Under the pieces are notes generated by a model, which worked only from the letters and a program-made list of their open reading frames with translations, was not told the DNA's origin and made no database searches. A DNA stretch of 21,234 bases from a virus (lineage: Duplodnaviria > Heunggongvirae > Uroviricota > Caudoviricetes), in the IMG/VR virus record IMGVR_UViG_2698536401_000006; one strand, 5' to 3'. The position numbers were made by a program, and so were the translations under genes. Of this stretch, positions 1 to 17,542 are shown in pieces. Numbering within the stretch: the stretch's first letter is position 1; each line of letters starts with the position of its first letter.

Positions 1-11
1 AGGGGGCCAGT

Positions 12-32
12 CTACTTTTTGTTGACTTCCAT
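12..32 (-). pseudogene. Terminase small subunit Nu1 N-terminal remnant (MEVNKK then in-frame TAG)
   Basis: ATG GAA GTC AAC AAA AAG matches the lambda nu1 start, but codon 7 is TAG (lambda has CAG) and the downstream sequence diverges. Only 11 nt are visible before the window edge. Confidence 0.45.
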
Positions 33-260
33 TGTTCATTCCACGGACAAAAACAGAGAAAGGAAACGACAGAGGCCAAAAAGCTCGCTTTCAGCACCTG
101 TCGTTTCCTTTCTTTTCAGGGGGTATTTTAAATAAAAACATTAAGTTACGACGAAGAAGAACGGAAATGCCTTAAACCGGAAAATTTTCATAAATAGCGA
201 AAACCCGCGAGGTCGCCGCCCCGTAACCTGTCGGATCGCCGGAAAGGACCCGAAAAATGA
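33..260 (-). other. Lambda-type cos region: cosN 12-nt cohesive-end sequence GGGCGGCGACCT at 210-221 (minus orientation), cosB side toward 33, cosQ side 222-260
   Basis: The reverse complement of 1-260 is nearly identical to the remembered phage lambda right-end/left-end junction (...CGACAGGTTACG | GGGCGGCGACCTCGCGGGTTTTCGCTATTTATGAAAATTTTCCGGTTTAAGG...GTGGAATGAACAATGGAAGTCAAC). Confidence 0.8.
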
Positions 261-420
261 TAATAATTATCATCTACATATCACAACGTGCATCTACGCC
301 ATCAAACCACGTCAAATAATCAATTATGACGCAGGTATCGTATTAATTGATCTGCATCAACTTAACGTAAAAACAACTTCAGACAATACAAATCAGCGAC
401 ACTGAATACGGGGCAACCTC

Positions 421-654
421 ATGTCAACTAAGAACAGAACCCGCAGAACAACAACCCGCAACATCCGCTTTCCTAACCAAATGATTGAACAAATTAACAT
501 CGCTCTTGAGCAAAAAGGGTCTGGGAATTTCTCAGCCTGGGTCATTGAAGCCTGCCGCCGGAGACTGTGCTCAGAAAAAAGAGTTTCTTCTGAAGCAAAC
601 AAAGAAAAGAGTGACATTACTGAATTGCTCAGAAAACAGGTCAGACCAGATTGA
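421..654 (+). CDS. Small ribbon-helix-helix (CopG/Arc-like) DNA-binding protein, YnfO/YlcI-like
   Basis: 77 aa ORF. The segment IRFPNQMIEQINIALEQKG..NFSAWVIEACRRRL has the beta-strand/helix/helix pattern of RHH proteins. Weak RBS; start uncertain (alternative Met at 481). Confidence 0.5.
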   Translation: MSTKNRTRRTTTRNIRFPNQMIEQINIALEQKGSGNFSAWVIEACRRRLCSEKRVSSEANKEKSDITELLRKQVRPD

Positions 655-696
655 AGAAATTTAGATAATCGTGCAGACTACGCCCCCTCATATCAC

Positions 697-1122
697 ATGG
701 AAGGTTTATCTATGGATCAGGTAGTCATCTTTAAACAAATATTTGATAAAGTTCGAAACGATTTAAACTATCAATGGTTTTATTCTGAGCTAAAACGTCA
801 CAATGTCTCACATTACATTTACTATTTAGCCACAGAGAATGTTCATATTGTATTAAAAAATGATAATACAGTGTTATTAAAGGGCCTAAAAAACATTGTG
901 TCTGTCAAATTTTCAAAGGATAGGCATCTTATAGAAACGACCTCTAATAAGCTGAAATCCAGAGAGATCACATTTCAGGAATACAGAAGAAACCTTGCTA
1001 AAGCAGGAGTTTTTCGGTGGGTTACAAATATCCACGAACAAAAAAGATATTACTATACCTTTGATAATTCATTACTATTTACTGAAAGCATCCAGAAAAC
1101 TACACAGATCTTACCACGCTAA
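697..1122 (+). CDS. ydfO: YdfO-like protein (DUF1398 family), prophage accessory gene
   Basis: 141 aa ORF, placed between cos and gnsB as ydfO is in K-12 Qin as I recall it. Opposite strand to the late operon. Start may be the internal Met at 712. Confidence 0.55.
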
Positions 1123-1273
1123 ACCATAACGTCCGGCTTCTCTCACTCCTGAGCCGGACTGCATTGGTTTAATAAAAACCATCAACAATTGTGATTTAGA
1201 TATTCGGAACCATTCAAATATAACAAAACCCCGTAAAAACGAGGTTTATGGATAAATTTTATTATTGAATACA

Positions 1274-1447
1274 TCAGATTAAATTAATCTTGACATCATA
1301 GCTTTCAAGACCCGTCATTTTTTCCCGTGCGGTAAACTGAATACTGGTAACTTCTTTCCCGGTCTTTTTCTTAAGTTCAATAATTTTTTTTGTTATATAT
1401 TCAGAAATATCTGCTTCTGCTTTTGTTTTTAAGTTTTCAATATTCAT
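1274..1447 (-). CDS. gnsB: GnsB-like small protein (Gns family)
   Basis: 57 aa ORF found by manual translation (absent from the ORF track): MNIENLKTKAEADISEYITKKIIELKKKTGKEVTSIQFTAREKMTGLESYDVKINLI, resembling remembered GnsA/GnsB. SD AAGAGGAA upstream; TGA stop at 1274-1276. Confidence 0.75.
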   Translation of the reverse strand: MNIENLKTKAEADISEYITKKIIELKKKTGKEVTSIQFTAREKMTGLESYDVKINLI

Positions 1448-1618
1448 CATTTCCTCTTTTAGTCTGTTATGACTTTCCAGTTACACAGTAAGTCGATTAT
1501 ATGGTGCAAACGTGTAAAAGATAAGATGAAACATCGCAATAATCAACATACGATAGTCTAAATTTTACACAAACAGACAAAGAGAATTTTCCTGAATTAT
1601 CAATGCAATAGCATCAAA

Positions 1619-1849
1619 TCAACTCAAGAGCCTTATTGCTGCTTCCAGAATTTCTTCTGAAGTAACATGTCGATCCGCGGCTACATAAATGACTTTATGA
1701 TCTCCGGTCAGAGATGGAAACCCTGCGGCCATTACAGTAAGGTGTGTTTTTTCGCCATTTGGATATTCACGCATGATGGTGTTAACTCCAGTCATCGCTG
1801 GCACTACCACTGCTGGTTCAGAGTTAAAAAAAACTATGATTTTTTTCAT
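1619..1849 (-). CDS. Hypothetical small protein, YnfN-like by position
   Basis: ORF 1619-1891; the likely start is the internal ATG at 1849 (MKKIIVFF...). Sits between gnsB and cspI as ynfN does in K-12 Qin. No recognisable domain. Confidence 0.5.
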   Translation of the reverse strand: MKKIIVFFNSEPAVVVPAMTGVNTIMREYPNGEKTHLTVMAAGFPSLTGDHKVIYVAADRHVTSEEILEAAIRLLS

Positions 1850-2120
1850 GATGTTACCGTAGTATGTGAGTATCCATCGAATAGACACCAAGCAAAAAAG
1901 CTCCCGAAGGAGCCTTCATTTTCACTTTTTTAAATCCAACGACAGACGGCTGGCATTTAAGTATTGTGAAATATTATCAAATGTAATCATCATTGATTTA
2001 CAAAAGATACATTTTGCCCCGAAAGGATTCATGTCAGAAACATCAAAAGATGATGTTCTATACTGGGAACCATGACAACACGGGCATCTAAAGTGAATAT
2101 GGTTTGTAATATTGTCTACC

Positions 2121-2333
2121 TCAAAGCGCCACTACATGAACAGCGGCAGGACCTTTAGGTCCGTTCTCAATACCAAATTCAACTTCCTGATTCTCAGTTA
2201 ATGTTTTGAAATCGTTGCTCTGAATTGCTGAGAAATGGACAAACACATCTTTGCTGCCATCTTTCGGCGTGATGAAACCAAAACCTTTTTCAGGGTTAAA
2301 CCATTTCACTAAACCAGTCATTTTGTTAGACAT
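2121..2333 (-). CDS. cspI: Cold shock protein CspI (CspA family)
   Basis: 70 aa with the signature [37 protein letters not shown] (RNP1/RNP2 motifs KGFGFI and VFVHF). Confidence 0.9.
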
Positions 2334-2695
2334 AATTATTACCTTTTGAAGAAATTAGCCCTTGGGCAGAATGGTCCGAAAAAAAATATCAGAGAGAAAA
2401 ACCAACAAGGAAATCTCAAGAGGTACAAATAATAAAATTATAACAATGACTGCTTCAGATAAATTTGTAACAAACCAGAACACCATTAACGCATGATTAA
2501 CCACCCATAGCAAGGATTACTTTTGTAAAGAAAAACACAGCAATGAAAGAATAGCTTTATTTATTAATAAAACGTGTCATTCTGATTAAGACCTTTTATC
2601 TTACCCTTAAGATTTCAGGAATTTTGGCTCATGGAAGAGTCCTTTTTATTTAAATTTTACATTCCGCGATGTAAATGTTCCGATTTAATATTACC

Positions 2696-3719
<1,024 letters not shown>

Positions 3720-3723
<4 letters not shown>

Positions 3724-4031
3724 AGATATTTATGATGAGGACGCTCGTGCTTATTGGCAGGATTTTCAATCTTAAAGGAGTACTGATGCTGCAGATAAGA
3801 CTCAACTTTTTCTGACAATTTTTCTGCTACTTCCAGGAAGACTTGCCGGACGCTCCTTCTGGCTGCTGCCTCATAAAACTCCAGCGCAGCTCCTTCAACA
3901 CGGTCCATGGCGACATCCAGGTCAAAAATTTCACCGTCAAAGCGTTCTTTGTCCTGTAAGGCTACAGTTACCGTAACTTTATTCTCAAAATTACGGACTC
4001 CTTTCACAACCAGTTCATAGTCTTGAGTCAT
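3720..4031 (-). CDS. ydfR: YdfR-like protein encoded between holin and endolysin
   Basis: 103 aa ORF translationally coupled (ATGA overlap) to the endolysin. Same position and length as K-12 ydfR as I recall it. Confidence 0.6.
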
Positions 4032-4035
4032 TGGA

Positions 4036-4251
4036 TTACTCTCCTCTCGCAGCCTTACGCCTGTCTTCTTTAATCTTGAAATAAAGATTTGTCAGATACG
4101 TCAGCAGGCCAAAAACCAGGCTACCCAGCACACCGATTGCAGCCCACTGTGACGGAGTTACTTTATCGAGTAACTGCAATGCCCAGAAACCAGCATTACC
4201 CGCCGATGTGCCATAGGCAACACCTGTTGTTAACTTATCCATTGATTTCAT
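4036..4251 (-). CDS. essQ: Holin (EssQ/EssD type), dual-start motif MKSM
   Basis: 71 aa from the ATG at 4251 ([14 protein letters not shown]...) with TM segments. SD GGTGAGGA upstream. Met1/Met4 dual start as in holin/antiholin pairs. The ORF track extends to 4326, but that upstream stretch lacks an RBS. Confidence 0.8.
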
Positions 4252-4470
4252 ATCCTCACCCCGATGTACACGGATGGTGCAATATGTTTGAAAAGATCGG
4301 AGTCTACGGGGTAGTTTTGACAGCACACGTTGTTCTCAACGGCGCTAAAAAAACATACACATTAAAAATGTGGGTAATTATTTTGAAAGAAAGTCATATA
4401 TAAAATAATAATACGAGAAATGTTTTCATATTTAGTGTACTGTATACGGCCATTTATACAGGAAAAGCCT

Positions 4471-4641
4471 ATGTCAGAACGTAAAAACTCAAAATCACGC
4501 CGTAATTATCTCGTTAAATGTTCCTGCCCAAACTGCACCCAAGAGTCAGAACACAGTTTTTCAAGAGTACAAAAAGGTGCCCTTTTGATCTGCCCTCATT
4601 GCAACAAAGTATTCCAGACAAATCTTAAAGCTGTAGCCTGA
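4471..4641 (+). CDS. Small zinc-ribbon protein (CxxC...CxxC), YnfU-like
   Basis: 56 aa from the ATG at 4471 (MSERKNSKSRRNYLVKCSCPNCTQESEHSFSRVQKGALLICPHCNKVF...). Two CxxC pairs; AGGAAAAG upstream. Followed by the hairpin at 4701-4726. Confidence 0.45.
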   Translation: MSERKNSKSRRNYLVKCSCPNCTQESEHSFSRVQKGALLICPHCNKVFQTNLKAVA

Positions 4642-4700
4642 TTGATTTTATTAGTAACAAGTATTTTTTATATTTTAATAATATATTTAAAGCAGATAAT

Positions 4701-4726
4701 AAAAAACCCGCCTGAGCGGGTTTGAG
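4701..4726 (-). terminator. Rho-independent terminator (hairpin CCCGC-ctga-GCGGG), strongest on the minus strand downstream of cspB
   Basis: The minus strand reads CCCGCTCAGGCGGG followed by TTTTTTATT. The plus strand has a poly-A before and a short T tract after, so it may act bidirectionally. Confidence 0.7.
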
Positions 4727-5004
4727 ATTGTGGTGCTTTTTGTGGGAGTCATCCACTTACGCACTTTGTTTTGCCATGCCAGCAGTTAGCTTCTGCTGTA
4801 AAACTATTCATGCAGCAAACCTGCACTTCACCACAATGGTTAGCATACTTTTCCTGATTAAGATTTTGCCAAATATGCTAGCCATTGTTTCATGTATTGG
4901 ACCTCCTTACTTTTTATTAAAGAGATCCAATATTCACTACTCTGTCCGTATCTCTACTCAGGCATCAGCCTTCTTCGTTATCGTATACAGACGAGCGATG
5001 AATT

Positions 5005-5220
5005 TTAATCAGTAATGATGACATTTGCTGCTGCAGGACCTTTAGCACCACTCTCTATAGAGAAGGTAACCTTTTGACCTTCAAATAAGGTTCGATAATT
5101 ATCATTCTGAATCGCAGAAAAATGCACAAACACATCTTTACTACCATCAACAGGAGAAATAAAGCCGAAACCTTTATCAGCGTTAAACCATTTTACTAAA
5201 CCAGTCATTTTATTTGACAT
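5005..5220 (-). CDS. cspB: Cold shock protein CspB
   Basis: 71 aa: [67 protein letters not shown]..., CspA-family signature. Confidence 0.9.
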
Positions 5221-5520
5221 TCTACATTCCTTAACTTGAGCCTTTCGGCATAAATGGTTTGCATAACAGAAACGACTTCGTACTTAATTGGAGAGACTCA
5301 AAGAAGGAATAAGTGAATAACACCTGAAATGAGAACTGCTTTAGTAAACTACTTCGTATATCGTCTGTTCTTCAAACCGACGCAATCATTAACGCATAGT
5401 TGAACATATGAAGCAATGTTTATTTTAGACATCCAGCCATCTTCAACCCCATCAAAAAACTATAGCTTTCTTCAGGAACGTGTGTATAGTGCGCCAAGTT
5501 ATCAGTATTAAGGAATTTTT

Positions 5521-5733
5521 TTGTCCCGTAAAATGACAGGAATTGTCAAAACCTTTGACGGCAAAAGCGGCAAGGGTCTTATCACCCCATCCGATGGTCG
5601 TATCGATGTCCAGCTTCATGTTTCAGCGCTCAATCTCCGCGATGCAGAAGAAATTACCACCGGATTACGCGTGGAATTTTGCCGGATAAATGGTCTGCGT
5701 GGCCCTTCAGCTGCCAATGTTTACCTTTCATGA
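5521..5733 (+). CDS. cspF: Cold shock protein homolog CspF/CspH type
   Basis: 70 aa: [26 protein letters not shown]...[21 protein letters not shown]. The track start at 5521 is a TTG codon; an in-frame ATG lies at 5533. Confidence 0.8.
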
Positions 5734-5787
5734 GCTATATTAAAGCTTTAATTTCAGGCCCCATCGGATCACACATGGAGAGTTTTT

Positions 5788-5877
5788 ATGAATAACCCCG
5801 TCTGTCTTGATGACTGGTTGATTGGCTTTAAAAGCTTATGCTGTACTTTGGCCGTAATAGCTCTGCTAATAATATAA
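5788..5877 (+). CDS. Possible 29 aa hydrophobic small peptide
   Basis: Manual translation gives [29 protein letters not shown], with GGAGAG 6 nt upstream of the ATG. Below the ORF-track size cutoff; speculative. Confidence 0.3.
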
Positions 5878-6025
5878 TAAGCAGACTCATTGTGTTTAGG
5901 GACATTGTACTGGAAGAAAACATTTTAAACATCAGGCAAATAACCAAGTCACCAGCTAAATAATAAGTTAACAGACATGAGTCCCGGGATGAGATTCAAC
6001 ATTACCATTGCCCCATTTAAAGCAC

Positions 6026-6059
6026 AAAACCCGCTCATCAGCGGGTTTTCTACTTTTTC
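6026..6059. terminator. Bidirectional hairpin terminator (CCCGCT-catc-AGCGGG), candidate tR' for the late promoter
   Basis: A GC-rich stem flanked by T-runs on both strands (plus TTTTCTACTTTTTC, minus TTTTGTGCTTT), lying about 40-60 nt downstream of the pR'-like promoter on the minus strand. Confidence 0.65.
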
Positions 6060-6094
6060 TTAACGTCGGGTATACAAAGCCCATCGTTGAAAAA

Positions 6095-6123
6095 ATTTTA
6101 TCCATATTTTTTGAAAAATGCAA
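6095..6123 (-). promoter_or_regulatory. pR'-like sigma-70 late promoter just downstream of Q (TTGCAT-N17-TAAAAT)
   Basis: The minus strand reads TTGCATTTTTCAAAAAATATGGATAAAAT: -35 at 6123-6118, a 17-nt spacer, and -10 at 6100-6095. Position relative to the Q gene is as in lambdoid phages. Confidence 0.6.
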
Positions 6124-6154
6124 ACATCATGTCGCCATCTTCAGCAAAAATCAT

Positions 6155-6907
6155 TTATCTCGTCACCTTCCTCAATTGCGCTTCCGCGTATGCTTCTTCC
6201 TGCCAGCACTTTGTTACCAGTTTACCAATGACGTCCGCATACCCCTTATACCACTGATAATCGGTCAGGTCTGGTACCAGCTTCTGGACATGACGTCGTG
6301 CCAGCGTGGTCGGTAAACGACTAAACCGGTTTCCATTACAACGCCCACAAATCTTATATACCGGTACGCCATGAAACCGGGTTCTTTTTTCATCCAGAAC
6401 AATCCCTTTACCCTTACACCCTCTGCACGCTGTGCTGGCTTCGCCCTTACCATGGCAATGCTGACATAGTTCCTTCACCCATTCTTCCTTGATTACAGAT
6501 TCCCCGCGTCTGTAGTGTTTCACCACTTCGCGCAATACATTATAAAATCCCGTACCTGAACAATGCTCACAGCGAGCCTTACTTGCCGCAGACCTGGAGT
6601 AATCAGCAAAGGCAAAACTCACGAGGTAAGGAATAATCTGTAACCGGATTTCTTCACTCAATTTGTTCAATGTCGGGTTATCCAGTGCCATCGCGTAATT
6701 TAGCAGGCCTTCAATCGCAAACTGAGGGTCCTGAACACCAACTTTTGCCAGAAATAAGGCCAACCCAAGTGGTGCTTTCGACTGCACCATCCCCTGCGCT
6801 GCCATTACATCCGTAATTGTTAAACAACCGGTGCCTGTCGCTGGAGCGTCATCGCTCAATTTTGGAGATTTTGGGGAGTAATATTTTGGTAAGGCTTCAA
6901 GGTTCAT
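6155..6907 (-). CDS. quuQ: Late-gene antiterminator Q homolog
   Basis: 250 aa from the ATG at 6907 (MNLEALPKYYSPKSPKLSDDAPATG...), with Cys-rich zinc-binding motifs (CEHCSGTG, CQHCHGKG, CRGCKGKG, CGRCNG). The ORF track begins 30 nt upstream at 6937. Confidence 0.85.
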   Translation of the reverse strand: MNLEALPKYYSPKSPKLSDDAPATGTGCLTITDVMAAQGMVQSKAPLGLALFLAKVGVQDPQFAIEGLLNYAMALDNPTLNKLSEEIRLQIIPYLVSFAFADYSRSAASKARCEHCSGTGFYNVLREVVKHYRRGESVIKEEWVKELCQHCHGKGEASTACRGCKGKGIVLDEKRTRFHGVPVYKICGRCNGNRFSRLPTTLARRHVQKLVPDLTDYQWYKGYADVIGKLVTKCWQEEAYAEAQLRKVTR

Positions 6908-6920
6908 GCTCGTTCTCCAC

Positions 6921-8009
6921 TTACGCCAGTACGCCAATTGTCAGCGCGCGATCGATAAAACGAAATATCAGCTCCAGTTGGGAGCCATACTTATCTTCAA
7001 ATGCCACTGTATCCGTATGCAGCTCGTTGTGATGCTTTCTGCACAAAGGCAACACAAAGAGATCATGTGCTTTTGTTCCCATTCCGCCCTGCCCGTGACC
7101 AATCAGATGATGCGGATCGTCGGCTGGCATACCGCAGCAAGCACACGGCTGTGTCTTAACCCAACGTGTGTATTTCTCCTTAACCCAGCGGCGACGTTTA
7201 GGCAGCTTCATGAAAGATTCCGGAGACTCTGGATCAACGGTGATGCTTACCACCGTCTTTTCCTGTGGTGATTTTTGTTGCTGGTGGGCGTAAGGCAACG
7301 GTGCAAGATTTTTTGTGCGTTGTTTCAATATGCTGGTGGCGGTCTGCTCTCCCGGTACGATGTCGCTTTCGCGGTACACCGAGCAGATTTTTTCCGCTGG
7401 TAATCCCAGCGAACGACGCGATACAGCCTCAGGTAGTGCATCCACCACCTGATTGCAGACCGCCCACCAGGATAATTCAGCCAAAGATAATTCCCGCTCC
7501 TGCGTACCGCTTATTGCGTGACGGATGACGTCAATCACCCATGCTGTCAGATTTTGTTGAGCAAGCAGCTCCAGTGATTCCGATGTCTGGTCACGCAGTT
7601 GGTTGTCGCAGTGCCAGCACAACACCATTGCGCCGGTACCATAACGGTGAATGACTGTTTCAGTGTGATGGTAATCGCCATTAGGCCACTGGCAGGATGT
7701 AACATGACGTAATAGCCAGTCGGACAATGCGCCAACGCCGCCAGCAGCACGAATCACCCGTTCGTTACTAAAAAACGGCAGCAATGTTTTGTCTTCCGCC
7801 AGCGGCTGGCGAACGGCAGGAACGACTCCGGATGGCAGATTACGCATGCTTTTTGGTTCCGGTTCCACCAGCACTCGAGGATTATGAAATATCTGTATGG
7901 ATTCACGGCCCGGCTTAAGGACCACCAGCCCAAGCTCAGGCACCAGAACAGGTCTAAGTAATACCCGCACGTTACCTCCAGATCCGTTGCTGGAAAGTGC
8001 GGGACGCAC
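6921..8009 (-). CDS. ydfU: YdfU-like protein (DUF968 family) with a C-terminal HNH-like Cys/His motif
   Basis: 362 aa ORF directly upstream of Q. C-terminal CACCGMPADDPHHLIGHG...CRKHHNELH. Start uncertain: the ORF overlaps the upstream rem-like ORF by 38 nt, and an internal Met (MRNLPSG) exists. Confidence 0.65.
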   Translation of the reverse strand: MRPALSSNGSGGNVRVLLRPVLVPELGLVVLKPGRESIQIFHNPRVLVEPEPKSMRNLPSGVVPAVRQPLAEDKTLLPFFSNERVIRAAGGVGALSDWLLRHVTSCQWPNGDYHHTETVIHRYGTGAMVLCWHCDNQLRDQTSESLELLAQQNLTAWVIDVIRHAISGTQERELSLAELSWWAVCNQVVDALPEAVSRRSLGLPAEKICSVYRESDIVPGEQTATSILKQRTKNLAPLPYAHQQQKSPQEKTVVSITVDPESPESFMKLPKRRRWVKEKYTRWVKTQPCACCGMPADDPHHLIGHGQGGMGTKAHDLFVLPLCRKHHNELHTDTVAFEDKYGSQLELIFRFIDRALTIGVLA

Positions 8010-8250
8010 GTGGTGGGCGTTCGGAATAAGGCAGCCTGACAGAGATTATCCAGTGCCGATAGTCGAGACTGAGAGCTTTCTTAACCTCGAACCCGCGCCT
8101 GCGGTAAGAATGAATCAGCCATTCGGCCTGTTCTGCAGTGCATGGAGGGTGCTGGAACCATTCAGACTTGAATGCGTGAGAATACCGCCCGTGCGTGCAG
8201 GCAAGAACGGGCGAATTATCAGAATTGTAATATTTTGCGTTGCGTGCCAT
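7972..8250 (-). CDS. rem: Rem-like small protein (assigned by position)
   Basis: 92 aa ORF between the ydfU-like gene and hokD, where rem lies in K-12 Qin. Named from position only. Confidence 0.5.
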   Translation of the reverse strand: MARNAKYYNSDNSPVLACTHGRYSHAFKSEWFQHPPCTAEQAEWLIHSYRRRGFEVKKALSLDYRHWIISVRLPYSERPPRASRTFQQRIWR

Positions 8251-8316
8251 CGGTTTTCTCCGGTGGCACGGTGTTACTCAGCGGGAGTTCAGCCCCGCGC
8301 AAGATTGTAGATGAGT

Positions 8317-8568
8317 TTATTCTCCTGAAAAAGCAGAAAAGCCAGCTTTTATTCCGATCTCTTTCAATGCCTGTAATGAAGTGACAAACTCACCTTCGCG
8401 CAAGATAAATCCGTCCGTGACCCGAGCATCCACAAAATTAATTAACGCAGCCCCATTCTTTCGCAAACACATAATGCGGTAATGACTAACAAGATTTCCA
8501 TTTTCAACGCACACAGCATAGAGGCCATCTTCACAAAAAATTTTACGCAGTTCTTCGATGTTCATCAT
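8317..8568 (-). CDS. Hypothetical 83 aa protein, no recognisable family
   Basis: ORF with SD GGAAGGA 6 nt upstream of ATGATG, downstream of the relBE-hokD terminator. I do not recognise it. Confidence 0.5.
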   Translation of the reverse strand: MMNIEELRKIFCEDGLYAVCVENGNLVSHYRIMCLRKNGAALINFVDARVTDGFILREGEFVTSLQALKEIGIKAGFSAFSGE

Positions 8569-8685
8569 CAGAATCCTTCCGGATAATTAGCTCTCCCCTT
8601 TAAGGGACCATCCCTCTTATCCCTGCGCGCTACTTAAGTATTTTTGATTCTATTCCGGCACCGTCCAGAACTTCAAACGCGTTGA

Positions 8686-8714
8686 AAATAAAAACAAAAA
8701 CCCGCCGAAGCGGG
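8686..8714 (-). terminator. Rho-independent terminator of the relBE-hokD operon
   Basis: The minus strand reads CCCGCTTCGGCGGG followed by TTTTTGTTTTTATTT, about 70 nt downstream of the hokD stop. Confidence 0.75.
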
Positions 8715-8784
8715 TTAAGTGCGGGTGCGTTGAGGATGCCTGCCACATCAGAGGTGGCGAGGGATTTCTCCCCCGCCGGGTCTC

Positions 8785-8940
8785 TTACTCCTCAGGTTCG
8801 TAAGCTGTGAAGACAGCGACCTCCGTCTGGCCGGTTCGGATTCGTACCTCGCAGAGGTCTTTCCTCGTTACCAGTGCCGTCACTATGACGGTTAAACAGA
8901 TGACGATCAGGGCGATTAACATCGCCTTTTGCTGCTTCAT
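8785..8940 (-). CDS. hokD: Hok-family membrane toxin HokD (RelF)
   Basis: Manual translation gives MKQQKAMLIALIVICLTVIVTALVTRKDLCEVRIRTGQTEVAVFTAYEPEE (51 aa), matching remembered HokD. SD AGGAGAAG upstream. Absent from the ORF track because of its size. Confidence 0.85.
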   Translation of the reverse strand: MKQQKAMLIALIVICLTVIVTALVTRKDLCEVRIRTGQTEVAVFTAYEPEE

Positions 8941-9011
8941 AGCCTGCTTCTCCTGTCAACGCAAAGCAGAAGTGTCACCTTCGGTGCGAAACAGAGATGT
9001 CATGCTTTGGT

Positions 9012-9299
9012 TCAGAGAATGCGTTTGACCGCCTCGCTATATACTTCCGAGCGTTCTCTTTTCCCAACAGAAATCACGAAAACGACAACTTTCTCGTCTA
9101 TAACCTGGTATACAAGGCGATAGCCTGAAGACCGGAGCTTAATCTTGTAACAATCAGGCATACCACGGAGCTTGTTTGCTTCAATCCGGGGTGACTCAAG
9201 TACTTCAACCAGCTTCTTTTTCAACTGTTCACGTACCGTCGAGCCCAGCTTTCGCCATTCCTTTAGTGCCCGCTCGTCAAAATCCAGAAAATACGCCAT
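9012..9299 (-). CDS. relE: RelE mRNA interferase toxin
   Basis: 95 aa: MAYFLDFDERALKEWRKLGSTVREQLKKKLVEVLESPRIEANKLRGMPDCYKIKLRSSGYRLVYQVIDEKVVVFVISVGKRERSEVY..., matching remembered RelE. Start overlaps the relB stop (TGATG). Confidence 0.9.
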   Translation of the reverse strand: MAYFLDFDERALKEWRKLGSTVREQLKKKLVEVLESPRIEANKLRGMPDCYKIKLRSSGYRLVYQVIDEKVVVFVISVGKRERSEVYSEAVKRIL

Positions 9300-9538
9300 C
9301 AGAGTTCATCCAGCGTCACACGTACTGGCTTAGGATTACGAAGCCGTTCTTTCACTATCTCCACAAGTTCAGCATCTTCATCACTCAGGAGTGTCTGTTT
9401 GAACGGCAAGCGTTCATTGTCAGCGATATACTCGAGCATGAGACGAAGCGCTTCAGAAGGAGTTACACCCATTTTTTCAAGCGCGGCGTAAGAACGCGCT
9501 TTAAGTTCATCGTCAATACGCAGGTTAATGCTACCCAT
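9299..9538 (-). CDS. relB: RelB antitoxin
   Basis: 79 aa: MGSINLRIDDELKARSYAALEKMGVTPSEALRLMLEYIADNERLPFKQTLLSDEDAELVEIVKERLRNPKPVRVTLDEL. SD GAGG upstream. Confidence 0.9.
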   Translation of the reverse strand: MGSINLRIDDELKARSYAALEKMGVTPSEALRLMLEYIADNERLPFKQTLLSDEDAELVEIVKERLRNPKPVRVTLDEL

Positions 9539-9544
9539 GTCTTA

Positions 9545-9590
9545 CACCTCTTGTAATTACAAATGTCATTACAAGTATCGCACTACAACA
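9545..9590 (-). promoter_or_regulatory. relBE promoter/operator (relO) with TTGTAAT/ATTACAA hexad repeats
   Basis: TTGTAATTACAAATGTCATTACAAG sits immediately upstream of the relB start, with palindromic TTGTAATTACAA. Confidence 0.7.
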
Positions 9591-9868
9591 TGCTTAGGGC
9601 AAGTCACGAAGGAAGTCAGAAAGTAGTCGTAAGAACGGTGATCACTGTCCGCTTTGTGCCAGGAGCAGCCATTGCTAAGTCCATCCTGTATTGTGCAGGT
9701 CAGCTCGTTTTTAAAGAGTCCGGCCATCATCTTACTGGTACAGACACCATATACTTTGTGACGGTCAGGCTACATATGCACAACTCAACTTATTCATCTA
9801 TTTTTTGCTTTAGCATGTCAGTGTTGCTTTCTCGTCGGCGGGTGAGCGGTGACCTGACCTGTCGATAA
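9563..9868 (+). CDS. Doubtful ORF, YdfV-like by position and length
   Basis: 101 aa ORF in the relB-flxA gap with no RBS and no recognisable features. It overlaps the relO promoter region. Listed only because K-12 annotates a 101 aa ydfV here. Confidence 0.2.
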   Translation: MSLQVSHYNMLRASHEGSQKVVVRTVITVRFVPGAAIAKSILYCAGQLVFKESGHHLTGTDTIYFVTVRLHMHNSTYSSIFCFSMSVLLSRRRVSGDLTCR

Positions 9869-10020
9869 AGGAACGTAACACGTTTTATGCAACACCCGCA
9901 TGCGGCAGAAAATTATTGCCGAACGTTTACCCCTGTCAACAAGCTTTACTTTCTGAGGCGCGCCAGCCCGCGAGGAAAACAATCTGAACATCAAACAATT
10001 AATGACACAAGAAATACGAT

Positions 10021-10047
10021 TAAAGATTTTTTTGTGCATGCCGATAG
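10021..10047 (+). promoter_or_regulatory. Sigma-28 (FliA) class 3 flagellar promoter upstream of flxA
   Basis: TAAAGATT-N11-GCCGATAG compared with the consensus TAAAGTTT-N11-GCCGATAA; about 24 nt upstream of the flxA start. Confidence 0.75.
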
Positions 10048-10070
10048 TGCTTTTTTAAAAGGAGAAATCT

Positions 10071-10403
10071 ATGTCTGTCACAATTCAGGGAAATACCTCA
10101 ACCGTTATTTCAAACAACTCCGCCCCGGAAGGAACATCAGAAATAGCCAAAATCACAAGACAAATTCAGGTGCTGACTGAAAAGCTTGGGAAAATCTCAT
10201 CGGAAGAGGGGATGACGACACAGCAGAAAAAAGAAATGGCTGCATTGGTACAGAAGCAAATTGAAAGCCTCTGGGCTCAACTGGAGCAGTTGTTAAGGCA
10301 GCAGGCAGAGAAAAAGAATGAAGACGCGACAGTTCAGCCTGATAAAAAAGAAGAGAAAAAAGACGATACAAATACCGCTGGCACCATTGATATTTACGTC
10401 TAA
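10071..10403 (+). CDS. flxA: FlxA (FliA-regulated protein)
   Basis: 110 aa: MSVTIQGNTSTVISNNSAPEGTSEIAKITRQIQVLTEKLGKISSEEGMTTQQKKEMAALVQKQIESLWAQL... RBS AAGGAGA. Confidence 0.85.
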   Translation: MSVTIQGNTSTVISNNSAPEGTSEIAKITRQIQVLTEKLGKISSEEGMTTQQKKEMAALVQKQIESLWAQLEQLLRQQAEKKNEDATVQPDKKEEKKDDTNTAGTIDIYV

Positions 10404-10417
10404 GTGACAGCCGTATT

Positions 10418-10441
10418 GTGGCCCTCATCGGGCCACTTTTC
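10418..10441 (+). terminator. Rho-independent terminator of flxA
   Basis: Hairpin GTGGCCC-tcatc-GGGCCAC followed by TTTTCG. Confidence 0.6.
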
Positions 10442-10839
10442 GCCATCAGCCTTTTCTTTAAAGACATATTATCTTTGTATCATTTCTGATAGTTAACATT
10501 ACAAGATATAAGTAATGGACGCACTCCCAATTAGTCTATTTAAATCGCCACGAGTTTAACTGACAACCCATGATCAATTATGAATTGCAACTATTTCTGT
10601 AGTCACTTTTGTGGGGACAGTCCACAAAACTGCCAACTTCCGCTTCTTGCTCTTAGCGGACATTAGCATAGGCTATTTACCATAACGCCTCATTACGCGC
10701 ACCGCCCAGACTGACTCAGCGCGTTTCTGGCATATCCCCGGTAAAACAAGTAACAAACCACCCGAAAATGAACACCAGAAACGCGACTTAAGAATCTACC
10801 CTATGAATGGATATGCACTCAACCGAATCGATCTTGGTT

Positions 10840-12153
10840 TCAATCTTTTTTATCGGGATCAGGCTTCTTTTTAGGTAACTTCGGGGGCTTAACTTGCTGA
10901 TGACTTTGCGTTCGGCGCGTAAGCCAGGGATGGTCAGCTTTAGGTTTAACATAGTATTTTGAGCGTAAATCAATACGGGCATTATCCACTCGTTCATGGA
11001 CACTCTTTTCATCATCCAGTGGTATAGGCTCCGGGCCATCAACATACTTTTCCCAGCCCAGCGCTTTCCCGTCATACAGAACGTTAATTTCACCGTCAAA
11101 GTTCTCGCATACAGTAACAACCGAATGCCTAAGTCGATATCCCCGGCCCTCACTGCGTACCTGAAACGCACTGCTTTTGTACTGGAAAGTGAGATTTTTA
11201 GACAGAACGCGCTTCGCCTGTAGGCTGAAGATATAACCCAGTTCCTCTTCAGAATGGTGCACATCAAGATGAGCATTATCAGTAGTACGAGGCGACGTAG
11301 CGAACCGGTTGTTATAGGCTTCAATAAAGGTCGGCAACCATGCATTTGCTGTTTCAATATCACTGATATTCTGAAGCCGCATTTCTTTGACCAGCCTGTC
11401 CTGTAGTGTCTGATTGGCGCGCTCTACCCGCCCTTTTGCCTGCGGGCTGTTGGCATGGATTGGCTCGATGCCCAGTGTCTTTATCGCACGAGTGAACTGG
11501 GTCAGCTCACCTTCCCGCTCTGGGTTATTTACCCTGAATATACTGTGTCTATCAGAGTAGAGAGCGAGCGGTACGCCATGATCATTAAGGTAACCCCGGA
11601 GGGTTTCCATGTAAGCCCGGGTTGTTTCAGCAGGCACAAAACGCAACGCCATCAACGCACTGGTGGCATCATCAATGAAAACGATCAGTGTACATCTGGG
11701 GCCTCGATTTTCAAACCAGTCATGAGGTGAGCCATCAATCTGGATCAGTTCACCGTAAGATGGTCGTCGCATGCGGCGTTGATATATACGGGCAATTTTA
11801 CGACGGCGTTCACGCCATAACCCCTCTTCTATCATCCACTTTCTGAGAGTTTCAACGGATAAAGATAAACCGTGTATCTCGCGCAATTTTTCGCACGCAA
11901 ACGTAGGTCCAAAATCAGCGTAACGGCCTTTGAGGAGTGAAATTACTGTTGCTCTGAATTCAGTAGAAAAGGAATTATTAGGACGCTTTCCACGTCGGTG
12001 GGAAACCAGACCAGAAGGCCCTTCATTTCTATACCGTTGCACCAGACGTTTAACCTGCCGAATAGAAATGCCAATGCGTGCCGCAGCTTGTTCCTGAATA
12101 ATCTGAAGTCGGTGGAGTTCCTTATGACTCATCGTAACAGTCTCTTTGATCAT
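10840..12153 (-). CDS. DDE transposase with N-terminal HTH and rve (integrase-core) domain, IS481-like in architecture
   Basis: 437 aa with an N-terminal HTH region (ISIRQVKRLVQRY) and D/D/E-type core segments (IQIDGSPHDWF, LIVFIDDATS, LYSDRHSIF, ERANQTLQD). IS family is not established and IS ends were not identified. Confidence 0.75.
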   Translation of the reverse strand: MIKETVTMSHKELHRLQIIQEQAAARIGISIRQVKRLVQRYRNEGPSGLVSHRRGKRPNNSFSTEFRATVISLLKGRYADFGPTFACEKLREIHGLSLSVETLRKWMIEEGLWRERRRKIARIYQRRMRRPSYGELIQIDGSPHDWFENRGPRCTLIVFIDDATSALMALRFVPAETTRAYMETLRGYLNDHGVPLALYSDRHSIFRVNNPEREGELTQFTRAIKTLGIEPIHANSPQAKGRVERANQTLQDRLVKEMRLQNISDIETANAWLPTFIEAYNNRFATSPRTTDNAHLDVHHSEEELGYIFSLQAKRVLSKNLTFQYKSSAFQVRSEGRGYRLRHSVVTVCENFDGEINVLYDGKALGWEKYVDGPEPIPLDDEKSVHERVDNARIDLRSKYYVKPKADHPWLTRRTQSHQQVKPPKLPKKKPDPDKKD

Positions 12154-12370
12154 GAAAAATCCCCCAGAGAATTGTCTGGGGACATTTTAGAATGGTTCAA
12201 AGGGGACATTACAGCTTGGTGTTAACAATAGCCTGCTTCTCCGTGCCTTTCGGCACGTAAGAGGCTAACCTACATGTGTCTAGCATGAAATTGGCCTCAG
12301 ATTAATGTTAAGCGTCTTGCAGGACGCGTAATGTTAACTGGGGCTTTTCTCTATCTGCCGTTGGTGTCCA

Positions 12371-12402
12371 TGCCCGAGGCAGATAGCCTCAAGCACCCGC
12401 CG
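12371..12402 (+). repeat. Left copy of a 32 bp imperfect direct repeat flanking the low-GC cassette
   Basis: TGCCCGAGGCAGATAGCCTCAAGCACCCGCCG; 27 of 32 nt match the copy at 14390-14421, with an identical 14-nt core CCTCAAGCACCCGC. Confidence 0.6.
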
Positions 12403-12636
12403 TGATTCTACAAAAACATTACCCACCTTTCCAGCAATTCACAACAACTCCATGCAAATAGTAAGTAGAATAATAAGTTATTAGTATTAGCAATTTACTT
12501 AGTTTCTAATTTGTGCCAATGATTTTCATTTTTGCATGAAAAATACCTTAACATTTTATATTTACTTACTATTTGTAAGCCCCATCAGTTCTTTCTGATG
12601 GCGGCTGGTATTTCAGTTCCAGATATAGTATATGCT

Positions 12637-13665
12637 TTACGCCTTAATAGGGTTAATCACATTTCCGCTATCCGTACCATAGTATTTTTTTGTAGTCATG
12701 CCTTGTTTATAATAATCATTTAACAGTTTGAGAAAGTTTCTTCCTTGCCTCTCATCTTCTATGACTAATTTACCATGCTCATTGGTCTTAAACTCTTCGT
12801 TCTGAAACATTTTTAGCACATCATTCATAGCTTGAACATCATTCTTTTCCAGAACCGTATGGTTACCTTTCTCAGCGATATGAGTGAGAATTTTTCTCAG
12901 TGATGGCTTATGAAGAATAGCTTGTTCAATAACATCTAAACCTTCAATAAGATCAAGTTCTTTAATTGTATTTAATGTTTTTTGTGCAGCTTCTGTAAAC
13001 TCAACCTCCAAGCCTACAATAGCCTCAAAACTTTTCTTATGAAATACATAAAATTGATCTTTTATATAAATACAATCGATTTTGTCATCAAAATTGACTG
13101 CGCTGCCATCAAATGATCTTAACTCTTTATCTGTTTTATCAAACAAAGCGAATACGCGCTGAGTCATATTTTGTGGTTCATTTGTTGTGACTTTCCCCCT
13201 GCTGATTTTTCGGAAAGAATAAGTGACGTCAGCCCCCTTTTGGACTTTAATACAATAGGCCCACAAATCATTCTGAACCTCAGCCAGAGAGGTAAGTACA
13301 ACTGGTTTATCATTCTTTATATCGTTATTAATAACTTTTGAAAACGATATCGCGTTATTCATAGCATAGGCATAAATCTTATTATCAATATCATCATCAA
13401 TAACAGTATACTTTTTCATCACAATATCATCTTTCGAAGCATGAGAAATAATCTGGTTTGATAAAGTATACTTAAAAAATTTAGCAATATCTGGAGCGAT
13501 TGGAGCTTTAATGATTTTAAAATCGAATTTATCAACAACTCTTGCGGTTCTACTCATACCCGCTTTAAGATGTCTAGTAATGAAATACAACGATATTTTC
13601 GCCGCATCATCATCCTTAAGTTGCTCAGCATACTCTAATAATTCTTCAAGCTTTAACATTTTCAT
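12637..13665 (-). CDS. Hypothetical 342 aa soluble protein, second gene of the low-GC cassette (candidate defence effector/sensor)
   Basis: AT-rich ORF with Lys/Asn/Ile-biased codon usage unlike the surrounding prophage. Translationally coupled (ATGA overlap) to the upstream membrane protein gene. No motif I can name. Confidence 0.75.
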   Translation of the reverse strand: MKMLKLEELLEYAEQLKDDDAAKISLYFITRHLKAGMSRTARVVDKFDFKIIKAPIAPDIAKFFKYTLSNQIISHASKDDIVMKKYTVIDDDIDNKIYAYAMNNAISFSKVINNDIKNDKPVVLTSLAEVQNDLWAYCIKVQKGADVTYSFRKISRGKVTTNEPQNMTQRVFALFDKTDKELRSFDGSAVNFDDKIDCIYIKDQFYVFHKKSFEAIVGLEVEFTEAAQKTLNTIKELDLIEGLDVIEQAILHKPSLRKILTHIAEKGNHTVLEKNDVQAMNDVLKMFQNEEFKTNEHGKLVIEDERQGRNFLKLLNDYYKQGMTTKKYYGTDSGNVINPIKA

Positions 13666-14276
13666 TCCTTATGGGATTCAGCATAAAAAAGTTTTGGGCC
13701 CACGTCCTCAACATCAAGAAGATCATCTTCCTCCAAATACTTTGATTTAGTCAAAACCATACCAGTGCGTTTTTTGTCGCTTTCTAAATCCAAATATGTA
13801 ACTTGATATAAAGTATAATTAATACTTATTGTAGGATTTATAAGTATCATGCTTGAATTAATATATATTAAAGCCGTTACCGTTAACAATATTGCTATAG
13901 GTATAACATTAGTTAAAGTGGATAGATCCTGAAATACAAACGGAATTATATATGTAAAAAGATAGCTTATTGATTCATTGTTTTTATTTTCAATATCTAT
14001 AACTCTTACAGTTCTACCACTAGTGGCGCATCGACGTTTTATATTTTTTAAAAAAATTGTTAATCCTACAATACCAAATAATGATAATACACCAATGACA
14101 CTGACCGCGCCAAAGTATTTAAAGAAAATAGTTAATGATTCAACACTTATACCTTTCCAATTTAAATAGCTTCTATAAGTATACAATTGCACAAAACACA
14201 TGATAAAGAATAGGGGAAGGTATGACACTATAAATAGCGAAACTCTAGCACCTAAATGTAGTTTATTTACTCTCAT
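13662..14276 (-). CDS. 4-TM membrane protein, first gene of the low-GC cassette
   Basis: 204 aa with four hydrophobic segments (about 12-31, 48-74, 103-115, 123-146) and an acidic C-terminal tail. AT-rich. Its stop overlaps the start of the downstream gene. Confidence 0.7.
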   Translation of the reverse strand: MRVNKLHLGARVSLFIVSYLPLFFIMCFVQLYTYRSYLNWKGISVESLTIFFKYFGAVSVIGVLSLFGIVGLTIFLKNIKRRCATSGRTVRVIDIENKNNESISYLFTYIIPFVFQDLSTLTNVIPIAILLTVTALIYINSSMILINPTISINYTLYQVTYLDLESDKKRTGMVLTKSKYLEEDDLLDVEDVGPKLFYAESHKE

Positions 14277-14389
14277 AACTACCCCACAGCCTACACGTCT
14301 AGTATTTTATGTTATTTCGAATAATTATGCATCAGATTACCATCCTACAATTGTGCATAAAACGAGCATTTTGCTGATTTTTCTGCGGA

Positions 14390-14421
14390 TGCCTGAGACA
14401 GACAACCTCAAGCACCCGCAG
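14390..14421 (+). repeat. Right copy of the 32 bp imperfect direct repeat flanking the low-GC cassette
   Basis: TGCCTGAGACAGACAACCTCAAGCACCCGCAG; pairs with 12371-12402. Confidence 0.6.
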
Positions 14422-14484
14422 CAATTTTACTTAACTCCCGCTACCTCGCCAATATGAAATCAATAAGAAAGGTGCTCCATAAAA

Positions 14485-15171
14485 TCACTCCTTCTCTTCT
14501 TTATCGTAGTGGAGTTGACCAATTTTGATAAGAGGGCGTCCCTGAGATTTGCGGTGTAGATTGGTATCGCGCAGAGAATACACACAGCCACAATATTCCT
14601 GCTGATAGAATTTTTCGCGCTTGCTGATTTCAATCATGCGGGACGAGCCGCCCTGCTTGCGCCAGTTATAATCCCAGTACACCATGCCCGGATAATGCGC
14701 GACGGCTCGCCGCCCACAGTCGTTAACCTGCTGCATATTTTTCCAGCGTGAAATGCCCAGTGAACTGCTGATCACACTGAAACCATTTTCAGCAGCGTAC
14801 AGCGCTGTCCGCTCAAAACGCATGTCAAAACACATGGTACAACGGATCCCCCTCTCGGGCTCCCATTCCATTCCTTTGGCACGTTCAAACCAGTTGTCTG
14901 TGTCGTAATCAGCATCAATAAATGGCACGCCGTGTTGTTCAGCAAAGCGAATATTCTCATCCTTACGAATTAAATACTCTTTCTGAGGATGAATGTTCGG
15001 GTTGTAGAAAAAGATGGTATAGTCGATTCCCGAGGCCTGAAGCGCCTCCATCACTTCACCGGAACATGGAGCACAGCAAGAGTGCAGTAGTAGTTTGTTT
15101 GCCCCGTTTGGGAGCTCCAATTTAGGCCGTTTGAAATCAGCAATAGTCATAAATATTTTTATTGGGGTCAT
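14485..15171 (-). CDS. QueH-like protein (DUF208, epoxyqueuosine reductase family)
   Basis: 228 aa containing [14 protein letters not shown] near the N-terminus, the Cys motif I associate with QueH/DUF208, plus further conserved Cys (CTMC, CGC). Start could be the internal Met at 15150. Confidence 0.65.
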
Positions 15172-15347
15172 GAAAATAGCACAGAGTGTAGCATCAGGGC
15201 TATCGGGAATAGATGTCTAAATCTGGTAATATCTGCTTTTGACGCAAAGCAGACAACCACGCTAGCTCAATCCTGTGCCGTGAAAATGTCAATTCACATC
15301 TGAACTAATGCTCTTTAATCTAGTTACGTCTATAAATAACGAAAATT

Positions 15348-15746
15348 TCACTGATAAAATGCCAGTATGCGCTGCATAACTTCGCTCTTCCGGCACTCAC
15401 AGCAAATTATGTTTTGGTGCCTGTCATAACGACGTATTTCTCCGTCAGGTAATGACCAGATAAGGTCCGGATCAACCACAGATGTTTTCTTCACCTTTGC
15501 CCTCGAGAGTTTTTTGCGGGCGTTTTGCCAGTCCTTACGAGCCTGTTCAGACGGGAATAACCCGTAGCCAGAGTTATATACATCACCACTGGCAACCAGC
15601 TCTCTGGCGAGAACGCTCATCAGATATCTTGTCGCACCTGTCTTGGCTTCCAGTTGCCGTAACGTCTCGCGCCCACTCCGGCGTACTAGCTCAACAACCT
15701 GCCCCTTGATTTTTTCCCGCTCTTCTTGTGTAAAAACTTTTGCCAC
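15348..15746 (-). CDS. Hypothetical 132 aa early-region protein
   Basis: ORF immediately downstream of the O-like gene; no recognisable motifs (no Walker A). Function unknown. Confidence 0.5.
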   Translation of the reverse strand: MAKVFTQEEREKIKGQVVELVRRSGRETLRQLEAKTGATRYLMSVLARELVASGDVYNSGYGLFPSEQARKDWQNARKKLSRAKVKKTSVVDPDLIWSLPDGEIRRYDRHQNIICCECRKSEVMQRILAFYQ

Positions 15747-15786
15747 AAGTCCCCCTTAAAATTACCTCATGACCTGAAATCAAAAC

Positions 15787-17465: not shown

Positions 17466-17542
17466 CGCACCTCCAATATTGAGTTTTCTCAATGCTAATC
17501 ACTCAAGGAATCTCAAGTCAAGGGTTATTAAGATATCTAAAT
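17466..17542. promoter_or_regulatory. dicC/dicA divergent promoter-operator region with palindrome TTGAGTTTTCTCAA
   Basis: 77 bp between divergent cro-like and cI-like genes. Perfect palindrome at 17479-17492; the related motif recurs at 18016-18027 and, inverted, at 18052-18063. Confidence 0.65.

Follow-up and report, generated by a model that had tools for sequence, protein, structure and literature searches.

The presence of a Q-type antitermination gene ahead of a promoter-like sequence, a hairpin, and the lysis genes of a lambdoid prophage raises the question of whether the short segment behind Q is a working late gene switch of the lambda PR'-tR' kind or only resembles one. The window analyzed here, a stretch of 21,234 nucleotides from a Caudoviricetes virus (IMG/VR record IMGVR_UViG_2698536401_000006), contains such an arrangement, and an earlier interpretation made without database searches (the sequence-only reading) had likened it to the lambda unit. 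The Qin cryptic prophage of E. coli K-12 MG1655 aligns to window positions 6-11024 with 99.8% identity. The prophage itself corresponds to 1827-11024, where a constant offset applies (MG1655 coordinate = window + 1636334), and positions 3210-6940 show zero differences from MG1655, with a promoter-terminator region 100% identical to that of K-12. The K-12 annotation gives, in the order of the late transcript, ydfU, ydfT, ynfS (+), cspF (+), cspB (-), ynfU (+), essQ, ydfR, rrrQ, and rzpQ, and the lysis genes among these (essQ, holin; ydfR; rrrQ, lysozyme; rzpQ) occupy 4251-2696 on the minus strand, downstream of the hairpin and on the same strand. Of 5426 complete E. coli genomes, 1602 (~30%) contain at least 80% of the 2.7-kb stretch from ynfU to ydfT. 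The region is AT-rich, and the K-12 record labels ydfT a 'putative antitermination protein Q'. No promoter, terminator, or RNA feature is annotated in that record between ydfT and cspF, and literature on ydfT, quuQ, and cspF yielded no relevant account of a Qin late promoter.

The segment 6123-6022 on the minus strand is very probably the Q-utilization cassette of a Qin-type lambdoid prophage, in which the late promoter PR', with a candidate Q-binding element between its hexamers, is followed by a sigma70-dependent pause element and the terminator tR' (Table 1). The Qin unit shares its descent with the lambda/P22 PR'-tR' cassette rather than only resembling it, and the switch is real and probably active.

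Table 1. Elements of the Qin late control region and of the genes that follow it (window positions)
Feature	Position	Strand	Basis
ydfT, Q antiterminator of the Q-lambda family with enlarged zinc-finger arm	6155-6907	-	PF03589, E = 3.6e-54
PR' -35 hexamer TTGCAT	6118-6123	-	In register with TTGACT of lambda and P22; kept in 88/89 related loci
17-nt spacer TTTTCAAAAAATATGGA, candidate Q-binding element	6101-6117	-	11/17 positions identical to the lambda spacer in the same register
PR' -10 hexamer TAAAAT	6095-6100	-	Sequence; TAAGAT or TAGGAT in relatives
Predicted start A 6088 and sigma-dependent pause element AACGAT(GGG)	6080-6088	-	Identical to lambda +1 to +9
Predicted 67-nt PR'-tR' RNA	6022-6088 (MG1655 1642356-1642422)	-	5' hairpin 6088-6062, A-rich linker 6061-6050, terminator
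tR' hairpin	6026-6049	both, by sequence	Core stem 6049-6040/6035-6026; folds on both strands
ynfS, small gene antisense to the late transcript	5788-5877	+	K-12 annotation via offset 1636334
cspF, antisense to the late transcript	5521-5733	+	Cold-shock domain PF00313, E = 5.6e-22; K-12 annotation
cspB with its own thermoregulator 5'UTR	4989-5381 (CDS 5005-5220)	-	Rfam RF01766, 158.8 bits; cold-shock domain, E = 9.8e-32
cspB mRNA 3' stem-loop without U-tract	4890-4952	-	15-bp stem, z = -4.32
Second bidirectional hairpin	4704-4723	both	Minus-strand terminator call; z = -4.86; plus-strand Term-seq 3' end at 4726
ynfU, zinc-ribbon gene antisense to the late transcript	4471-4641	+	PF23499 YnfU, E = 3.5e-31; K-12 annotation
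essQ, holin, first lysis gene	4036-4251	-	PF04971, E = 4.4e-34; presumed target of Q-dependent read-through

By definition, a Q cassette begins with a Q gene, behind which come PR', a sigma-dependent pause element, a terminator, and the late genes, and the lambda Q protein has been assigned to PF03589 (PMC9388147). A Q gene of this family, ydfT, stands immediately upstream of the Qin unit, and its stop codon (6157-6155, minus strand) lies 32 nt ahead of the -35 hexamer. YdfT is 33% identical to Q-lambda over the full length of the latter (E = 2e-40), matches the Q-lambda structure PDB 7UBM (E = 4.6e-36), and also matches DnaJ_CXXCXGXG (E = 1.3e-8). Compared with Q-lambda, it carries a 48-aa insertion containing extra CXXCXGXG motifs, which the alignment places inside the zinc-ribbon arm (Q-lambda residues 114-152). 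Since the arm of Q-lambda contacts the Q-binding element and its tip contacts the repositioned sigma region 4 (PMC9388147), the details of loading may differ between YdfT and the lambda protein. The Q protein of phage PhiR42_1 is 100% identical to YdfT. A scan of IMG/VR with the Q protein returned only relatives at least 94% identical, and the diversity described below was drawn from tblastn searches against phage records.

Behind ydfT, the minus strand reads TTGCAT-N17-TAAAAT-N6-AACGATGGG, with a 6-nt discriminator between TAAAAT and AACGATGGG. The AACGAT at +1 to +6 equals the pause element of lambda and P22 at the sequence level, and transcription is inferred to start at A 6088 by homology with both phages. 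In lambda, the Q-binding element sits between the -35 and -10 elements. The corresponding Qin spacer varies in 5 of its 17 columns among relatives, and the lambda element has been located at PR' (PMC9388147). The exact AACGATGGG occurs once in the whole window, on which ground a second PR'-like site near essQ was rejected. Judged by consensus, PR' appears only moderate, with three of six matches to TTGACA at -35 and five of six at -10, and a promoter scanner lists the site only as TTTGCA-N18-TAAAAT (9/12). The region holds 10 promoter-like sites against 6.2 +/- 2.6 in shuffles, a density no higher than expected, so that the consensus match alone does not go beyond chance. The minus-strand sigma-70 promoter of the sequence-only reading is therefore present with its hexamers and 17-nt spacing, but the description of it as strong does not hold. 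Comparative and experimental evidence lifts the site above chance, namely the register shared with lambda and P22, the pattern in 85 of 89 related loci, the fold of the RNA, and a 3' end mapped in vivo. No usable start-site data for 6088 were found in the SMRT-Cappable-seq, Rend-seq annotation, Cappable-seq, APERO, and RNET-seq publications.

The unit of 171 nt is present in 35 phage records, including SfV, mEp460, Ayreon, 2H10, Tritos, PhiR42_1, Salmonella phages, and 15 Stx2c-converting phages, and most matches end at query position 135, which is window 6026 and the last base of the hairpin. To avoid selection for the pattern, a second set of loci (n = 89) was anchored on the last 100 nt of Q alone. 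In this set, TTG[CT]AT-N-TA[AG][AG]AT-N-AACGATGGG is kept in 85 loci, those of SfV, mEp460, and the Stx2c/Stx2k phages among them, a count that is partly inherited and does not represent independent events since the relatives are close (Q at least 86% identical in nucleotides). The four exceptions are two AATGAT, one GACGAT, and one degenerate copy in phage HannyBb. Pairwise identities were taken from loci selected by a pattern in which the -35, the -10, and AACGATGGG are fixed, and the values for these three elements are therefore given by the selection itself. In this set, less variation is seen from the promoter to +17 than in the adjoining Q coding sequence (~0.88 pairwise identity) or in the RNA body, which is the least conserved part of the unit (~0.75 for +18 to +27). 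The terminator stems vary among relatives (CCCGCTGATGAGCGGG, CCCGCCGCTGAGCGGG, CCTCGCTTCGGCGGGG, and CCCGCCTCCGAGTGGG) while pairing is kept, and three pairs are altered on both sides in a compensatory manner. Distant relatives with Q proteins 33-42% identical (Evi, YeP1, a Klebsiella phage, and SI5) have starts resembling -10/N5-6/(T)AACGATGGG followed by a terminator, and the records of SfV and Ayreon annotate one at the homologous position.

Counted from A 6088, the tR' hairpin begins at +40, and it is followed on the minus strand by the tail TTTTGTGC. Term-seq of uninduced MG1655 lists a minus-strand 3' end at 1642356 (window 6022), between the flanks ...AAAACCCGCTGATGAGCGGGTTTTGTGC and TTTAAATGGG, and classifies it as 'orphan' (Adams et al., 2021, PMC7815308, Supplementary file 1). 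This end falls at +67 and 8 nt past the stem, as expected for intrinsic termination, and the two entries shown for it have scores of 103591 and 55368, compared with 64702 and 47630 at the rem terminator. The combination of hairpin, U-run, and a 3' end in uninduced cells is that of an intrinsic terminator working without Q, and the sequence-only reading was right to place a hairpin terminator shortly behind the promoter. The predicted 67-nt RNA folds with a minimum free energy of -26.2 kcal/mol (z = -5.55), and none of 200 shuffles is as good. Some leakage through tR' is suggested by another minus-strand 3' end, at window 5854. The hairpin 5862-5886 beside this end was rejected as a second terminator because it folds no better than shuffles (z = -0.77).

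The source of the RNA ending at 6022 has to be considered together with the transcription that enters from upstream. The same Term-seq table places the 3' end of the rem terminator at window 8238, so that little transcription from beyond it continues into ydfU-ydfT. An origin of the 6022 end at PR' is thereby favored without being proven, as the end could instead derive from the ydfU-ydfT mRNA, finishing 133 nt past the Q stop codon. In the strictest form of that alternative, the hairpin is only a convergent terminator between the ydfU-ydfT mRNA and cspF-ynfS, and the promoter-like hexamers are inactive, as their chance-level density would allow. A terminator scan indeed calls the hairpin on the plus strand, where it has a good T-run (tail CTACTTTTTC), whereas the minus-strand U-tract is interrupted (UUUUGUGC). 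The plus-strand fold is equally good (z = -5.65), which makes the hairpin bidirectional by sequence. The earlier view of it as a terminator of the late strand is borne out by the minus-strand 3' end but needs this correction. The A-rich tract that provides the plus-strand U-run occurs only in the cspF-carrying haplotype, a co-occurrence that fits a dual-use terminator but may be mere linkage. A purely convergent role is nevertheless very unlikely, since the -35/N17/-10/N6/AACGATGGG arrangement is common to lambda and P22, where it is the characterized late promoter and qut site, and since phages without a convergent gene are among the 85 of 89 loci that keep the pattern. Moreover, the Term-seq end at the hairpin is on the minus strand alone, and incoming transcription already ends at rem. 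No plus-strand 3' end is listed at the hairpin in Term-seq of uninduced MG1655, where cspF may be too weakly expressed.

The 67-nt RNA could also act in trans as a regulatory sRNA in lysogens, besides being a by-product of the switch, like StxS. In lysogens of Stx phages, an antiterminated late promoter gives rise to StxS constitutively; the RNA is processed to a length of 74 nt, associates with Hfq, and acts on targets that have been proven, and PR' RNAs have been proposed as a source of sRNAs (PMC7547250). In line with such a role, the Qin 3' end is abundant in uninduced K-12, and the RNA folds into two stable hairpins joined by an unpaired A-rich linker (AAGAAAAAGUAGAAAA) and is rich in U at its 3' end, but the body of the RNA is the least conserved part of the unit and its 3' U-run is short and interrupted, and we consider the role unlikely. 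No Rfam family reaches threshold for this RNA (best 21 bits against gathering scores of at least 37), and matches to isrK, isrJ, and leader peptides at 14-21 bits were dismissed as generic terminator matches. HnrS, a 66-nt EHEC prophage sRNA (PMC13502914), was considered on account of its size and rejected by position, since its copy in Sakai Sp9 (EcOnc12, 1779522-1779569, minus strand) has the Rz gene, rather than a Q gene, in front of it and is encoded on the opposite strand. A wider proposal sees in this RNA, which a cryptic prophage would supply constitutively in K-12 and which ~30% of complete E. coli genomes encode, a regulatory sRNA that has escaped annotation, with the A-rich linker serving as a chaperone-binding or seed region, and holds that late transcription is in addition an antisense switch which shuts off cspF, ynfS, and ynfU and boosts cspB at lysis; we regard it as quite unlikely. 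A feedback has a still smaller chance, in which CspB, a cold-induced RNA chaperone of the CspA family encoded directly downstream of tR', melts the terminator and allows Q-independent read-through in the cold. Some CspA-family proteins do act as antiterminators, as reviewed in PMC9765468, but overproduced CspB and CspF left termination unchanged in the SgrS terminator assay of the same publication, and most relatives with the same PR'-tR' unit carry no csp genes, so that this feedback appears extremely improbable.

The genes between tR' and the holin were correctly identified by the sequence-only reading as cspF on the plus strand, cspB, and a zinc-ribbon ORF, and the ORF and the holin can now be named ynfU and essQ. 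The antisense orientation of cspF to the late transcript stands as well, but cspF is not alone in it, as ynfS and ynfU also lie on the plus strand. Similarly, cspB is on the late strand with the lysis genes as had been stated, to which it has to be added that the gene has its own promoter, 5'UTR, and 3' ends. Term-seq places the latter at 5300 and at 4890-4892, the strongest 3' end of the region. The hairpin at 4704-4723 is both the terminator of ynfU on the plus strand and an obstacle on the late strand.

The content of this interval differs among phages with the same unit. For example, an ORF and a DNA methylase gene follow tR' in SfV and Ayreon, regulators, three tRNAs, and stx2k follow it in phiSTEC1575, and one small ORF precedes the holin in 118970_sal3 and SKA5. 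The deposited phage genomes PhiR42_1 and 2H10 carry the cspF/cspB block with an identical layout from Q to the holin. The whole 2-kb block is found in six phage records only; other phages share the holin alone, from ~4277 downward, and in phages with a related holin, the sequence ahead of that gene has nothing in common with Qin. Because similarity ends at the hairpin and resumes at ~4277, the variable slot can be set at roughly 4280-6025, and the cold-shock block (1.75 kb) is cargo in this slot. It has the properties of a moron, being absent in relatives and equipped with its own control elements, namely the thermoregulator 5'UTR and 3' ends of cspB and the terminator of ynfU. From the geometry it follows that late read-through would produce antisense RNA of cspF, ynfS, and ynfU and would place cspB on the lysis mRNA, an inference supported by the layout shared with PhiR42_1, with its 100% identical Q, and 2H10.

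For the Q-utilization cassette, the following course of events can be proposed. Without Q, host RNA polymerase would start at A 6088, the predicted 5' end, and would pause early when sigma70 re-binds the -10-like AACGAT, as its identity with the lambda element implies. The polymerase would then terminate at the tR' hairpin and release the 67-nt RNA, the 3' end of which corresponds to the one mapped in vivo. Once YdfT is made, it should attach to the spacer and be loaded onto the paused polymerase, which would thereby become resistant to termination. The modified polymerase would cross tR', the cspB 3' stem-loop, and the hairpin 4723-4704 to reach essQ-ydfR-rrrQ-rzpQ, running head-on against cspF-ynfS and ynfU on its way, and the tR' hairpin probably also stops the convergent cspF-ynfS transcript.

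Much of this is already known in kind, since the unit is an ordinary late gene switch of the lambda/P22 type with a known type of cargo slot, and the current understanding of Q antitermination is unchanged by it. The new part is modest and consists of the K-12 annotation, the link to the orphan Term-seq end, and the attribution to an enlarged-arm Q subtype that controls stx2c and stx2k elsewhere. An 'orphan' RNA 3' end in K-12 thereby receives a testable annotation with a promoter, a start, a pause element, a terminator, and a 67-nt RNA. In addition, the slot behind tR' emerges as a hot spot for cargo, including a methylase, toxin genes with tRNAs, and cold-shock genes.

Comparison with phage lambda supports the likeness to its pR'/tR' unit that the sequence-only reading had noticed, in the Q-lambda family membership of ydfT, the identical spacing, and the common first transcribed bases. 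Lambda Q is followed by TTGACT-N17-TAAATT-TGACTC-AACGATGGG, so that the -35/N17/-10/N6 spacing is the same in Qin, the bases from +1 to +9 are identical including the sigma-dependent pause element, the Q proteins are homologous, and the Q-binding element should occupy the corresponding position. Lambda departs from Qin in its spacer sequence, its -35-like element, and the arm of its Q protein. The terminated PR' RNA of lambda is 194 nt, compared with the 67 nt predicted in Qin, and in place of the Qin cargo, lambda has nothing but an unproven ORF between tR' and its holin gene S.

In P22, the Q-family gene 23 is followed by TTGACT-N17-TAAATT-TGACTC-AACGATGG, and the first eight transcribed bases are common to Qin. 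In the P22 record, P late and a qut-like site are annotated over these bases, and the first A of AACGAT is marked as the 5' nucleotide of the late RNA. For the qut-like site that had been proposed as something to look for over the Qin promoter, the stretch in register with the one annotated in P22 is a candidate. The P22 terminator t late ends ~59 nt after the start, compared with 67 nt in Qin, and both are short units with the lysis genes downstream; the holin of P22 follows ~300 bp on without cargo, whereas Qin has the 1.75-kb block. The gp23 protein has 207 residues and a single zinc ribbon, while YdfT, of the same family, has 250 and the extra CXXCXGXG module. The P22 spacer, its presumed Q-binding element, differs from that of Qin at 5 of 17 positions, and where lambda and P22 have the -35-like TTGACT adjoining the pause element, Qin has TTTTTC. 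Owing to TTTTTC, the spacer differences, and the insertion in YdfT, the pause position and the loading geometry are not readable from lambda.

The predicted Qin RNA resembles StxS (PMC7547250) in being a short, constitutive PR'-tR' transcript of lysogens ended at tR' with cargo between tR' and the lysis genes, but differs from it in having no RNA similarity and no shared Rfam family. Further counterparts are SfV, mEp460, Ayreon, 2H10, and the Stx2c/Stx2k phages, which have the same Q subtype (90-100% amino acid identity) and the same PR'-tR' unit (80-100% nucleotide identity), with variation in the cargo behind tR' and in the linker of the short RNA. The same Q/PR'/tR' type stands upstream of stx2c and stx2k in these toxin-converting phages, and Qin of K-12 can therefore serve as a safe model for site recognition by the enlarged-arm Q subtype.

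Two copies of the PR'-tR' unit (the late promoter with its pause element and terminator hairpin) are present in phage HannyBb (L008 1311-1460 and 2948-3170), where the copy directly after the antiterminator gene Q is degenerate (ATTGTA..CAAAGA..AATGATGAG) and an intact second copy, resembling that of Qin, lies 1.7 kb further downstream. Ahead of the intact copy stand the final 57 nt of a Q gene, and after it comes the csp block (the cspF/cspB cargo) at 98.5% identity, which suggests that the cargo travelled along with its own PR'-tR' by recombination inside Q. Two places in PhiR63_1 likewise match the PR'-tR' unit. Phage Tritos (OV696610.1, 40459-40468) keeps PR'-tR' and the csp block without the part equivalent to window 5724-5990, including ynfS, and its tR' adjoins the end of cspF.

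Within the first 25-27 nt of the predicted PR' RNA, AACG of the pause element pairs with a downstream CGUU, so that this 5' segment folds as a hairpin. The same 5' pairing is found in lambda (L002), P22 (L093), Evi (L097), and SfV. In YeP1 (L099) AAGGAU is paired with UUCUUA, both sides having changed. Sequestering of the pause-element RNA in a stem at the 5' terminus may be a feature of the family. Two loci otherwise identical to Qin (L058 and L064) carry the pause element AATGAT instead of AACGAT (+3 of the PR' RNA), which is nearer to the -10 consensus. The 51-codon ORF spanning this unit, labelled a hypothetical protein in PhiR42_1 (L006 3038-3193), is most likely a spurious call.

In published Term-seq data from uninduced MG1655, a minus-strand 3' end antisense to ynfS is located at 5854, 168 nt past tR' (one of two entries shown), and it implies some read-through of tR' in the absence of induction. 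The hairpin adjoining 5854 folds no better than its shuffles. The strongest 3' end of the region is on the minus strand at 4890-4892 (scores 604404 and 1233565), about 115 nt past the cspB stop and directly after a 15-bp stem that lacks a U-tract, and it may represent a processed or exonuclease-protected end of the cspB mRNA. The canonical terminator 170 nt further (4723-4704) has a plus-strand Term-seq end only, for ynfU.

Features of the window discussed in the text
Feature	Position	Strand	Remark
cspA-type thermoregulator, second	2094-2479	-	112.8 bits
cspI	2121-2333		
Stem-loop at the strongest 3' end	4890-4952	-	
51-codon TTG ORF	5968-6123	-	begins in the -35 hexamer, spans pause element and terminator
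Hairpin of the PR' RNA	6062-6088	-	
ydfT	6155-6907	-	
ydfU	6921-7970	-	directly precedes Q; product is a DUF968 protein
437-aa ORF	10840-12153		
sok antitoxin RNA	12227-12398	-	Rfam match, 104 bits

Because cspI, preceded by the second thermoregulator, is also found just past the lysis cassette, the late region contains three csp genes, two of which have the same orientation as the late transcript. In addition, since 11025-18690, with the 437-aa ORF, several ORFs of 200-340 aa, and sok, is mostly missing from K-12 Qin, where short pieces alone match, the prophage in the window is more complete than the K-12 copy.

The C-terminus of YdfU weakly resembles an HNH nuclease (PF16784, E 6.5e-6), and ydfU accompanies the Qin-type Q subtype in every relative examined. 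YdfT, the Q antiterminator itself, differs from lambda Q by a 48-residue insertion (residues about 125-172) in the zinc-ribbon "arm", which gives it four CXXC(XGXG) motifs and a match to the DnaJ central domain (E 1.3e-8). Long relatives, of 254-273 residues, likewise occur in phages of Salmonella, Klebsiella, Erwinia, and Yersinia. Because the arm of lambda Q touches DNA and sigma region 4 (PMC9388147), this long-arm subfamily may load in a mode different from that of lambda Q.
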